This document shows positions 16,101 through 19,100 of a DNA stretch of 64,000 bases, in pieces. Source of the stretch: Escherichia coli (GTDB lineage: Bacteria; Pseudomonadota; Gammaproteobacteria; Enterobacterales; Enterobacteriaceae). Made by a program: the position numbers. The first letter of the stretch is position 1. Each line of letters begins with the position of its first letter. The stretch lies in NCBI RefSeq assembly GCF_024298765.1, contig NZ_CP101210.1; one strand, given 5' to 3'.

Positions 16101-19100
16101 GCAATTTTTGCAGCTGCTACTGCCGGAACTGGCGCGCAAGTCGGCAAAGACTCCCATTCCAGGCTTGCTGACAGCACAACAGGCACTGGAGAAATTTAAT
16201 GGCGATAAGACAGCAGCGGCGAATTATTTAGGTATCAGCCGAACGACGTTCTGGCGGCGGCTGAAAAGCTGAACTGCCGAATGCAGCGCGAACGCTTTAT
16301 CCGGCATAAATTTCAATAGATGATGATCACCGATAAACTTACGCATCGGGGATGTTTACATAGGATTCAGAATTACTTCTTCTTATAAATATTTGCCGTG
16401 CCGTGGATCTTATTGTCAGTTTGACCAGAGGTCAGTACCAACACATCAGCCCCTTTTTCATCGGCTTTTTTGATCAAATCTTCTTTCGCATCTGCGGTCG
16501 ACATTTCATTACTGGTTGAAATATCACCTATTTTTTCATATTGCGATGCAACCTTTTCAAATTCCGCTTTGGTCATTAATTCTGCGGCATAGACATTGGT
16601 AACGGCAAACGCTAACGCACCGACTAACATTTTAGAGATTATTTTCATATTACGGCTCCAGAGTTGTTATCACACTATCACCCACCCACATTATTGGGTT
16701 GATTAATAATTAGTTCAGTCAGGGCATAAACGCCAGTAACCGGAAATAAGACACTTTGTGATCTCTCTCGCACCCGATTATTTTTGGTAGAAATATGATG
16801 AAGTTACTTCACTTATTTATGGATGAAATCACTATGGATCCTTTGCACGCCGTTTATCTGACCGTAGGACTGTTCGTGATTACTTTTTTTAATCCGGGAG
16901 CCAATCTCTTTGTGGTAGTACAAACCAGCCTGGCTTCCGGTCGACGCGCAGGGGTGCTGACCGGACTGGGCGTGGCGTTGGGCGATGCATTTTATTCCGG
17001 GTTGGGTTTGTTTGGTCTTGCAACACTAATTACGCAGTGTGAGGAGATTTTTTCGCTTATCAGAATCGTCGGCGGCGCTTATCTCTTATGGTTTGCGTGG
17101 TGCAGCATGCGCCGCCAGTCAACACCGCAAATGAGCACACTACAACAACCGATTAGCGCCCCCTGGTATGTCTTTTTCCGCCGTGGATTAATTACCGATC
17201 TCTCTAACCCGCAAACCGTTTTATTTTTTATCAGTATTTTCTCAGTAACATTACATGCCGAAACACCAACATGGGCACGATTAATGGCCTGGGCGGGGAT
17301 TGTGCTCGCATCAATTATCTGGCGAGTCTTTCTTAGTCAGGCGTTTTCTTTGCCCGCAGTGCGTCGTGCTTATGGGCGTATGCAACGCGTTGCCAGTTGG
17401 GTTATTGGTGCAATTATTGGTGTATTCGCGCTACGCCTGATTTACGAAGGGGTGACGCAGCGGTGAGCAGATAATTTACTCTCTACGTAATCAACCTGAT
17501 TTGCCGAATCCCAACCATCGGCGATGATAGCCCCCGTAATGCGTGGTCCTTATTTCCGATAAGTTTACTTGAGTCTTTAGCTTCCCATTTCAGCCCACTC
17601 TCCCCTGTGTGGGCTTTTTTCATTGTTCTGACCCGTCCTGAATAGCCAAACAATGGCAATGTTCCACTTTGCAGGGATGATAATAAGGGATCTGATTCAG
17701 AAAAGTTTTGAAAAGTTGGACCGCCATCGAGGCCTCGAACCCCGTACCATACAACAATCCTGGTTGTCGTCTGCTCTTCCTGATGAGCTAATGGCGGTTT
17801 TTGATATGAGCCTTACAACATATTTTCTGTCAGGCTTGAGTGCGATGCGTAAGATACAGAAAAGACCCCACACAAACATGATGGAATTATGATTTTTTTC
17901 ATATGAATGTCAACCCACACATTCACAAAACATCTGTATGAGAACATTTTTTATACACCATATAGCTGCGAAACCACTACTGGTGCTTTTTTAAGCGAAA
18001 CTCCGCCGTTCACAACAAAATATCGGCGAAAAAGGAGGGGGAATGCCATTTGGCATACAGATATACAGATGAAATGATGACCTGCTTTGCGATTCACTCT
18101 CTGGTGGAATAACAACTTGCAGGTGGCTCTCTTAAATAAAAATAAACGTCGCAGATAATAAAGCTCTGATTAAACCATACACTATCAGAAATCGCTCATA
18201 ACTAACGTGTAAAGTAGTGGAGTTAATTTAACAATCTGAATTTACGCTATAGGTTTACCACTACTTTGATATTATTTCGCTCTCCTTAACTAAAAAGTTA
18301 AGTGGAGCGAAGTTAATATGTTAAACCACAGGATGTTTATTAATTTTTTCAGTCTGTTAGTGTGCGATTATCGATAACAAAACGATATTTCACATCACCA
18401 CGCAGCATTCGCTCATAGGCTTCATTAATTTGATCGGCCCGAATCATCTCTATATCAGCCACGATGCCATGTTCGGCGCAAAAATCGAGCATCTCCTGAG
18501 TTTCTGGAATGCCGCCAATCATAGAACCAGCTATCGCGCGGCGTTTCATGATCAGGTTGAAAACTTCCGGCGATTTATGCGGTGTCGCAGGCGCACCAAC
18601 CAGCGTCATGGTGCCATCGCGCTTCAGCAAGGTGGTAAAATCGTCGAGATTATGTGGCGCAGCTACTGTATTCAAAATGAAATCGAAACTCTTGAGATGA
18701 GCCGCCATCTCATCGGCATTGCGTGAGTTAACAACTTCATCGGCCCCCAGGGCTTTTGCCGCTTCGCGTTTTGACTCAGAAGTGGTAAATGCCACCACAT
18801 GCGCCCCCATCGCGTGGGCCAGCTTGATCCCCATATGTCCCAGACCGCCGATGCCGACCACGCCCACTTTTTTACCCGGCCCGGCCTGCCAGTGACGTAG
18901 CGGCGAGTATGTGGTGATCCCTGCACACAACAAAGGAGCCACCGCCGCCAGGTGCTCTTGCGGGTGACGAATACGCAGAACATATCGCTCATGAACGACG
19001 ATCTGTTGTGAGTAGCCGCCCAGAGTATGGCCCGGTTCGTCCGGCGTCGGCGAGTTATAGGTGCCGGTCATGTGATCACAGTAGTTTTCCAGCCCGTCTT

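Follow-up and report, generated by a model that had tools for sequence, protein, structure and literature searches.

The B2-type yahK-yahN spacer of Escherichia coli: probable deletion of yahL next to a conserved stem-loop at the yahK 3' end

Genes and features of the spacer

The window, i.e. the whole stretch of 64,000 nucleotides of E. coli DNA that was analysed, contains a yahN-yahK interval without yahL. The spacer between the two genes comprises 882 bp in the window versus 1,731 bp in K-12, where the record gives the order yahK-yahL-xtpA-yahM-yahN with a YahL of 271 aa. The initial annotation had stated that the yahK-yahN interval of K-12 contains yahM and a yahL of about 270 aa and that no yahL-sized gene is present here; both statements are correct, with xtpA to be added to the K-12 gene order. 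Its description of about 450 bp of AT-rich DNA also agrees with our values, since the GC content of positions 17893-18348 is 35.3% compared with 50.3% window-wide. The following features were assigned:

16795-17466, plus strand: yahN
approximately 17483-17727, minus strand: yahM, a frameshifted pseudogene in this lineage
17592-17620, plus strand: hairpin resembling an intrinsic terminator (AGCCCAC...GTGGGCT), with a T run after it, about 125 nt past the yahN stop
17653-17892, plus strand: 79-aa ORF of the initial annotation, antisense to xtpA and the tRNA-like element
17697-17879, minus strand: xtpA (K-12 b4845), 60-aa small protein with a leaderless mRNA, from the K-12 annotation and translation
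17717-17797, minus strand: tRNA-like sequence inside xtpA (ARAGORN tRNA-Ser(gga), 81 nt)
17886-17913, minus strand: predicted sigma-70 promoter of xtpA (-35 TTGACA at 17913-17908, -10 CATAAT ending at 17886; 11/12 consensus)
17914-18126: what remains of the yahL-xtpA intergenic region on the left side of the deletion, from the alignment to K-12
18126-18127: deletion junction (K-12 344170-345004 missing, 835 bp)
18127-18348: remnant of the yahK-yahL intergenic region (yahK 3' region) with B2-specific deletions of 11, 1 and 2 bp
18211-18267: perfect 10-bp inverted repeat, AAAGTAGTGG at 18211-18220 and CCACTACTTT at 18258-18267
18276-18311, minus strand: conserved stem-loop marking the yahK mRNA 3' end, from structure, shuffles, folding and K-12 Term-seq
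18349-19398, minus strand: yahK (NADPH-dependent aldehyde reductase), intact, 98.2% nucleotide identity to K-12

The hairpin downstream of yahN (-13.7 kcal/mol, z -2.8) is probably the yahN terminator; its weak match in Rfam is due to the terminator stem. The position of yahM was taken from the PGAP annotation of strain 104, the spacer of which is 100% identical to the window (L001 6017-6261, 'frameshifted'). A 1-bp deletion relative to K-12 at 17686/17687 changes the reading frame of yahM after about 14 residues.

XtpA is intact and differs from the K-12 protein in one amino acid (A21V). According to RegulonDB v12 (PMC10767902), with reference to Muto et al. 2022 (J Biochem 171:459), XtpA is encoded by a leaderless mRNA with a tRNA-like sequence; the protein has been reported to regulate the small RNA GcvB. 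The position of the predicted promoter would put the start of the xtpA transcript close to the ATG (17879), as for a leaderless mRNA. The 'yahM 5' UTR' cloned by Adams et al. (PMC7815308) begins at ATGTTTGTGTGGGG. Apart from its -35 box, xtpA lies outside the interval delimited by the initial annotation.

The tRNA-like sequence shows no differences between the window, K-12 and APEC37. ARAGORN gives the same tRNA-Ser(gga) in Escherichia sp. E1V33, in the divergent Escherichia lineage L007 and in E. albertii, and the translated peptide is identical in all of them. No Rfam tRNA match is obtained at 17717-17797 with E<=1. Of the 81 positions, 66 are shared with an element that lies between ileZ and argO in Stx phage phiP27 and in a phage-like plasmid; the homologue on the phage-like plasmid is labeled 'tRNA-OTHER' by NCBI.

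The 79-aa ORF, which had been regarded as the only reading frame in the spacer, exists but is accidental and not a conserved gene: its frame has stops in K-12, in O157 and even in the B2 strain CFT073, in all three through a 1-bp difference. The ORF is not yahM; annotated yahM is located on the minus strand and is frameshifted.

The stem-loop downstream of yahK

The hairpin next to yahK pairs 14 of 16 positions around a 4-nt loop (arms 18276-18291 and 18296-18311, 36 nt in total) and ends 37 nt past the yahK stop codon. Its structure had been described correctly before, with coordinates one position too high (18277-18312). A 14/16 stem occurred in none of 300 dinucleotide-preserving shuffles of the spacer (maximum 13); hence the hairpin is not a chance product. 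RNA folding yields z values of -7.0 for the minus and -8.2 for the plus strand, and the stability on the yahK-sense strand is -19.8 kcal/mol. The hairpin was found in all Escherichia lineages compared, as bulged, perfect and mismatched variants, with two mismatches in the allele of the window. G·U substitutions preserve the yahK-sense fold in L007 (-19.0 kcal/mol) and E. albertii (-17.6 kcal/mol), for which the opposite strand gives -10.1 and -13.8 kcal/mol, respectively. No Rfam family matches the hairpin or the inverted repeat. A dispersed repeat of the REP/BIME type is not indicated, as the hairpin is single-copy within the 64-kb window; the adjacent 80-nt yahK-proximal segment (18196-18275) occurs exactly once per genome and the whole spacer with a median of once.

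Whether this hairpin ends the yahK transcript can be answered in the affirmative for the K-12 allele from published Term-seq data. 3' ends of yahK-sense RNA were reported at 344011 and 344013 on the plus strand (Adams et al. 2021, PMC7815308, Supplementary files 1 and 3). Since the K-12 hairpin ends at 344008, these ends are located 3-5 nt beyond the stem, and they correspond to 18271-18273 on the minus strand of the window. A bicyclomycin-sensitive Rho termination region was assigned to 344049 on the plus strand (Rho score 3.6, p 1.8e-5; Adams et al. 2021, PMC7815308, Supplementary file 2), about 40 nt downstream of the mapped 3' ends and equivalent to about 18236 in the window.

Presumably, Rho-dependent termination takes place in the AT-rich DNA downstream of yahK, and 3'-to-5' trimming would then run back to the hairpin, which would protect the yahK mRNA. 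From the K-12 data this is the most likely mechanism of yahK 3'-end formation, and we infer it for the allele of the window. The arrangement resembles that of Rho-terminated genes with stem-loop-protected ends (Adams et al. 2021, PMC7815308), in which a stable stem-loop is likewise found without a U-tract; the K-12 allele also shows 3' ends a few nucleotides past the stem-loop and bicyclomycin-sensitive readthrough just downstream. Processed 3' ends protected by stem-loops at Rho-dependent regions were described by Dar & Sorek 2018, as cited in PMC7815308. In the window, 11 bp are missing where K-12 shows Rho termination. C exceeds G only in the first 60 nt past the yahK stop (11 C, 5 G), the remainder being AT-rich with about equal C and G, and no clear C-rich rut site is visible.

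Alternatively, the hairpin may be a weak Rho-independent terminator of yahK and not the protective end-point of Rho-terminated, exonuclease-trimmed transcripts. The G+C-rich and stable stem-loop (-20 to -29 kcal/mol) at its short distance from the stop codon fits this explanation, as do the K-12 3' ends, whose spacing from the stem is typical for intrinsic terminators. However, a U-tract after the stem is found neither here, where AAUAAUAUCAAAG follows, nor in K-12, E1V33, E. albertii or any other lineage compared, and a terminator scan of 17300-18500 returned no terminator-like site. Together with the bicyclomycin-sensitive region downstream in K-12, this renders intrinsic termination unlikely, and we prefer trimming to a protective hairpin.

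Extent and origin of the yahL gap

Pairwise alignment to K-12 shows a single clean gap of 835 bp at 18126|18127. The gap was placed by affine pairwise alignment, as MAFFT had wrongly scattered it over the spacer. The missing segment extends from 6 bp upstream to 13 bp downstream of the yahL coding sequence, and its flanks are 90-96% identical to K-12. Otherwise K-12 MG1655 (b0325-b0328, b4845) shares with the window the flanking genes, the xtpA/tRNA-like gene with its promoter and the hairpin after yahK, whereas the window differs from K-12 in the missing 835 bp, the 11-, 2- and 1-bp deletions near yahK and the yahM frameshift. The junction shows 0 bp of microhomology or target-site duplication. 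Terminal repeats, as expected at the boundaries of a mobile element (IS, MITE or integron cassette), were not found around yahL, and direct repeats flanking the gene are marginal (8/500 shuffles).

Among 5,426 complete E. coli genomes the intact junction is present in 1,072 (19.8%), including CFT073, ST131 and APEC IMT5155. yahL was found in 4,076 (75%), including K-12 (A), O157:H7 (E) and IAI39 (F). An intergenic sequence of the B2 type was detected in 1,069 genomes, among them the type strain ATCC 11775. The label B2 rests on the named strains CFT073, ST131, IMT5155 and ATCC 11775, which belong to this phylogroup. Phylogroup F, represented by IAI39, is close to B2. CFT073 resembles the window, as do 1,071 other genomes, in lacking yahL at the same junction, and it has yahK, a frameshifted yahM and yahN with a spacer of 881 bp. 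It differs in that yahJ is located directly beside yahK, where the window has an ABC-transporter island, in a 9/10 inverted repeat and in lacking the 1-bp deletion from which the 79-aa ORF results. Thus, the spacer of the window is the common phylogroup-B2 version. It is ordinary strain variation, and reference genomes such as CFT073 already show this organisation.

YahL itself offers little guidance. For YahL, YahM and XtpA no significant match was obtained in Pfam, NCBIfam, PADLOC or PHROGs, a sequence search of the PDB was likewise negative, and AlphaFold2 models of five orthologues had a mean pLDDT of 50. A single remote homologue proved genuine (P0027, 26% identity); it is encoded in an uncommon E. 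coli island and gives no clue to function. Another candidate for a distant relative, P0009, was rejected as an artefact caused by a frameshift in an error-rich, K-12-like assembly.

The initial annotation had left open a deletion scar or an alternative organisation of the locus, to be checked against K-12. The K-12 organisation does differ, with yahL in place, and the 835-bp gap together with the outgroup comparison indicates that the absence of yahL is a deletion and not the ancestral state. For polarity, four non-coli Escherichia lineages served as outgroups, E. fergusonii and E. marmotae not being part of this set. Two of them, E. albertii and Escherichia sp. E1V33, lack yahL, so that parsimony alone cannot settle the question and the argument leans on the retained flanks and on L007.

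In E. albertii and E1V33 homologues of about 17936-18270 of the window are missing as well. The B2 allele, in contrast, has kept about 335 bp of yahL-flanking DNA (17936-18126 and 18127 to about 18270). L007 is divergent at the species level (yahK 88.6% nucleotide identity to K-12, compared with 98.2% for B2) and carries a full-length yahL at the same position, with 82.7% nucleotide identity, dN/dS of 0.17 and dS of 0.66. Judging by its dN/dS, this yahL is under purifying selection, and a recent import of the region from E. coli is unlikely at 82.7% identity.

If the short form were ancestral, yahL would have been inserted later in the non-B2 phylogroups and the window would represent a never-occupied site. 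This is consistent with the two outgroups that have xtpA and the hairpin without yahL, with the low GC content of yahL (38.8%) and its restriction to Escherichia as an orphan, and with an indel of almost exactly gene size. However, the B2 allele retains the yahL-flanking DNA that is missing from the yahL-less outgroups, and yahL is in place in L007 as well as in IAI39; neither a target-site duplication nor terminal repeats accompany the supposed insertion. Consequently, an ancestral short form is very unlikely and largely refuted.

We therefore favour, with a probability of roughly 0.8, a spacer in which a yahL module was gained and then deleted on the B2 branch. The spacer would be an AT-rich, horizontally acquired patch with an older core of yahM, the tRNA-like/xtpA element and the stem-loop, common to E. 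albertii and Escherichia sp. E1V33. A module with the orphan yahL may have joined later, before E. coli split from at least one sister lineage. One illegitimate-recombination event on the B2 branch then took out 835 bp and fused both yahL-flanking intergenic segments at 18126|18127, accompanied by the small B2-specific deletions of 11, 1 and 2 bp. The hairpin would be an ancestral yahK 3'-end element and the inverted repeat a by-product.

The inverted repeat and the significance of the B2 allele

The two stem-loops are unequal, the hairpin being conserved and probably functional and the inverted repeat lineage-specific. The latter had been noted as a perfect 10-bp repeat, which holds apart from the second arm, located at 18258-18267 and not at 18259-18268. 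It arose through the 11-bp deletion, is missing from non-B2 alleles and is reduced to 9/10 in CFT073 and M70. Of 300 shuffles, 4.7% contain a perfect inverted 10-mer repeat whose loop does not exceed 60 nt, a borderline value. Most likely it is a fortuitous by-product of the 11-bp deletion without a function.

Both stem-loops could instead constitute a new functional RNA or DNA element of B2, either a second terminator or insulator that offsets the shorter distance between yahK and xtpA or a protein-binding palindrome. The inverted repeat spans exactly the window equivalent of the K-12 Rho termination region, its fold reaches a z of -3.35 on the yahK-sense minus strand (-1.76 on the plus strand), and hairpin and repeat folded jointly give -5.7. 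Against this, the repeat is not conserved even within B2, where the 80-nt segment is identical in only 419 of 1,069 B2-type genomes and differs somewhere in 650; it is missing from all other lineages, arises in about 5% of shuffles and has no Rfam match. A new element is thus highly improbable.

The B2 loss of yahL might also be a selected rearrangement that alters XtpA expression in extraintestinal pathogenic lineages, with the inverted repeat as a compensating insulator. The distance from the yahK 3' end to xtpA is 469 nt in the window compared with 1,318 nt in K-12, and strong binding sites of RNA-polymerase holoenzyme were reported inside yahL. If this explanation were true, the closeness of yahK to xtpA and the loss of these sites would both shift XtpA expression; we consider it extremely improbable. 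An assembly or sequencing artefact is practically excluded by the same junction in 1,072 independent complete genomes, reference strain CFT073 included.

Deletion of yahL on the B2 branch is of practical relevance for water-quality qPCR, where the gene has been advocated as an "E. coli/Shigella conserved signature" for detection (PMC11057252). The primers and the probe of this assay fall within the deleted segment, so that about 20% of complete genomes would be undetectable by it. Strains that would be missed, as predicted from their genomes, include ST131, CFT073-like uropathogens, APEC O2:K1 and the type strain of the species. Furthermore, the locus provides a clean natural series of bulged, perfect and mismatched hairpin variants at a mapped mRNA 3' end, which could be used to relate stem quality to 3'-end protection. 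For the biology of E. coli the B2 allele represents routine events, namely the lineage-specific loss of an orphan gene within a decaying, horizontally acquired patch.

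Gene order and the segment missing relative to K-12

The yahN-yahK spacer of the window is 882 bp long, and 17893-18348 is AT-rich as initially annotated (35.3% GC vs 50.3% in the window). The spacer of E. coli strain 104 is 100% identical; its NCBI annotation lists a frameshifted yahM as the sole gene between yahN and yahK.

Features of the region in window coordinates, with strand where applicable
14674-16272 (+): prpR
16373-16648 (-): yahO
16795-17466 (+): yahN
about 17483-17727 (-): yahM, frameshifted in the window
17653-17892 (+): 79-aa ORF, antisense to xtpA
17686/17687: 1-bp deletion vs K-12
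17697-17879 (-): xtpA (K-12 b4845, a recently added gene)
17717-17797 (-): tRNA-like sequence in the xtpA mRNA, ARAGORN tRNA-Ser(gga)
-35 at 17913-17908, -10 ending at 17886 (-): sigma-70 promoter (11/12 match), positioned for a start at the xtpA ATG
18211-18220 and 18258-18267: perfect 10-bp inverted repeat
18218/18219: 11-bp deletion vs K-12, creating the left arm of the repeat
18253/18254: 1-bp deletion vs K-12
18276-18291 and 18296-18311: hairpin, 14/16 paired, 4-nt loop
18304/18305: 2-bp deletion vs K-12, in the right arm of the hairpin
18349-19398 (-): yahK, with an ABC-transporter cluster beyond

The K-12 layout given in the initial annotation, with yahL and yahM between yahK and yahN, is correct according to the K-12 record (yahK-yahL-xtpA-yahM-yahN, YahL of 271 aa). 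An affine pairwise alignment confirmed that the window is organised differently. It contains one large gap: 835 bp (K-12 344170-345004) are missing at window position 18126/18127. The lost segment has a GC content of 39% and comprises the yahL coding sequence (344176-344991), 6 bp before the ATG and 13 bp past the stop. Neither microhomology nor a duplication was detected at the junction (0 each), and no terminal repeats bracketing yahL were found.

yahL is an uncharacterised gene, conserved but taxonomically restricted. Pfam, NCBIfam, PADLOC and PHROG assigned its product to no family, a sequence search found no solved structure, and the AlphaFold model is too poor for use. Among 5.8 billion clustered proteins, and again when 1.84 billion representatives were scanned exhaustively, only Escherichia orthologues or fragments were recovered, together with a single remote homologue encoded on a rare island of E. 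coli (P0027; 275 aa, 26% identity, E 3.5e-11; L040 8001-8828, GCA_009799345.1). The latter is neighboured by a DUF2686 (YjfZ-like) gene, an invasin/intimin-like protein, a TPR chaperone-like gene and an SseC-like translocon gene. A published qPCR assay (PMC11057252) uses YahL as a "signature" of E. coli; its primers and probe fall within the deleted segment and are not found anywhere in the window.

A sugar/AI-2-type ABC transporter cluster with an ASCH-domain gene adjoins yahK (19485-22901 and beyond, minus strand). This island is also present in strain 104, APEC37 and IAI39, in the last between yahK and yahJ; K-12 and CFT073 lack it, and yahJ abuts yahK in both. Its presence or absence varies independently of yahL and constitutes a second polymorphism. 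Between prpR and yahO, 16233-16306 (minus strand) gives a sub-threshold match to Rfam naRNA4, a REP-derived nucleoid-associated RNA (30.6 bits vs a gathering score of 59.5, E 0.008), and is probably an ordinary REP element. About 125 nt past the yahN stop, within the antisense yahM pseudogene, 17592-17620 (plus strand, yahN-sense) has the shape of an intrinsic terminator (AGCCCAC...GTGGGCT, then a T run) and is probably the yahN terminator.

Polarity and distribution of the yahL-less allele

Outgroups, one genome per species, were anchored on YahN. Citrobacter and Salmonella possess yahN, and yahM, xtpA, yahL and yahK are all missing downstream. E. albertii carries yahN, a degraded yahM, xtpA, the hairpin and yahJ, and Escherichia sp. 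E1V33 carries yahN, xtpA, the hairpin, yahK and yahJ; yahL was not found at the YahN-anchored locus of either. In both, homology to the E. coli spacer ends just upstream of the xtpA promoter (~17935) and returns at the hairpin. L007, a species-level divergent Escherichia lineage, has the complete K-12-type arrangement, with a yahK of 88.6% nucleotide identity to K-12 vs 98.2% for the window and a full-length yahL (82.7% nucleotide and 79% amino-acid identity; dS 0.66, dN/dS 0.17). Hence, given this arrangement and the outgroup pattern, the yahL module with its non-coding flanks predates the E. coli radiation. Since genomes with the yahL-less, B2-type spacer retain both yahL flanks (17936-18126 and 18127-~18270), which are missing in the yahL-less outgroups, the window carries a true deletion scar that very probably arose on the B2 branch. 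This initially proposed reading is supported by both the K-12 alignment and the outgroup comparison.

Of yahL, Escherichia sp. MOD1-EC7003 (L030, 6670-8181) retains no more than the ~48 3'-terminal codons. There, xtpA is wholly and yahM mostly deleted, and ~1.3 kb of unrelated DNA follows. The yahN-yahK interval is prone to rearrangement.

The yahL-less junction, counted when an 80-nt probe was covered end to end, occurs in 1,072 of 5,426 complete E. coli genomes (19.8%), including O25b:H4-ST131 and APEC IMT5155; the remaining probe-matching genomes contain one probe half only. yahL is present in 4,076 genomes (75.1%). The short allele is also that of CFT073, whose spacer measures 881 bp. The B2-type yahK-proximal sequence with the 11-bp deletion was found in 1,069 genomes, among them ATCC 11775, the type strain of the species; this set practically coincides with that of the junction carriers. 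We take the named short-allele strains to belong to phylogroup B2. yahL was found in K-12 (phylogroup A), O157:H7 (E) and IAI39 (F), phylogroup F being close to B2.

The hairpin at the yahK 3' end and the 10-bp repeat

Both stem-loops of the initial annotation exist, although the second arm of the repeat and the hairpin had been placed one base off. A 14/16 hairpin arose in 0 of 300 dinucleotide-preserving shuffles, and the structure is found in all lineages examined in several variants: 14/16 in the window and CFT073, 10+6 bp with a 2-nt bulge in the K-12 type, a perfect stem (-29 kcal/mol) in B2 strain M70, a 9-bp stem in E1V33 and a shorter form with a 9-bp basal stem in E. albertii, which has no yahK, so that the hairpin follows yahJ there. 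Substitutions in L007 and E. albertii leave the yahK-sense RNA paired via G·U (-19.0 and -17.6 kcal/mol; opposite strand -10.1 and -13.8).

That the yahK transcript ends at the hairpin is borne out by published data for the K-12 allele. Adams et al. 2021 (PMC7815308, Supplementary files 1 and 3) mapped Term-seq 3' ends at 344013(+) and 344011(+), seen in two of the three growth conditions. The K-12 sequence reads ...GGAGAGCGAA then AUAAU, which places these ends 5 and 3 nt past the stem (PMC7815308). A Rho termination region lies downstream at 344049(+) (Rho score 3.6, p 1.8e-5), and such Term-seq positions are regarded as processed ends (Adams et al. 2021, PMC7815308). In the best reading, the hairpin would act as a protective, 3'-end-defining stem of a Rho-terminated yahK transcript. 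The main alternative, a weak intrinsic terminator, agrees with ends so close to the stem, but no U-tract follows the stem in any lineage and a terminator scan gave no matches. The window equivalents of the K-12 sites would be 18271-18273 (3' ends) and ~18236 (Rho region), as judged from sequence correspondence.

The 10-bp inverted repeat is most likely fortuitous, since the chance expectation is about 5% (a perfect 10-mer repeat in 4.7% of 300 dinucleotide-preserving shuffles). Restricted to B2-type sequences, it originated from the 11-bp deletion and substitutions; it is 9/10 in CFT073 and M70, and the identical 80-nt segment is present in only 419 of the 1,069 B2-type genomes.

yahM, xtpA and the tRNA-like element

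The 79-aa ORF noted in the spacer exists, but its frame is interrupted by stop codons in K-12, O157 and B2 strain CFT073 and it is therefore accidental; the antisense xtpA had been missed. An assignment of this ORF to yahM was rejected, yahM being on the minus strand. yahM is flagged as frameshifted in 4/4 B2 genomes inspected and in IAI39 (F), and is intact in K-12, APEC37 and 1517k. Decay of the gene seems to be under way in several lineages.

The xtpA mRNA is leaderless and contains a tRNA-like sequence; XtpA is cited from Muto et al. 2022 in RegulonDB v12. In L007 and E. albertii, codon 4 of the XtpA frame is a stop codon. The translated peptide of the tRNA-like segment is identical across all lineages, each with the same ARAGORN tRNA-Ser(gga); xtpA homologues lie at L007 6894-7073 and, in two further comparison loci, at L008 1043-1213 and L006 910-1086. 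Conservation of the xtpA region seems to act on the RNA, not on the peptide.

The tRNA-like sequence has a homologue in phage phiP27 (L043 1501-1582; also comparison locus L004 4001-4081), where an element with ileZ and argO on its two sides immediately precedes stx2e. The phage homologue is unannotated or labelled 'tRNA-OTHER' and also occurs in other lambdoid phages and a phage-like plasmid. The two elements share 66/81 positions without gaps and differ only in the anticodon-arm and variable region, a similarity that points to a former phage tRNA cluster as the origin of the xtpA region. Inside the tRNA-like part, a Term-seq 3' end marked Rho-dependent was mapped at K-12 345390 (+), ~17741 (-) in the window, in 3/3 growth conditions, and a Rho termination region lies within yahM at K-12 345585 (Adams et al. 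2021, PMC7815308). Most xtpA transcripts may end inside the tRNA-like element.

The observation made in the initial annotation is real. The yahL-less spacer represents a lineage polymorphism of an ordinary kind, already on record, that adjoins a known small gene, and the hairpin is a known type of 3'-end stem-loop.
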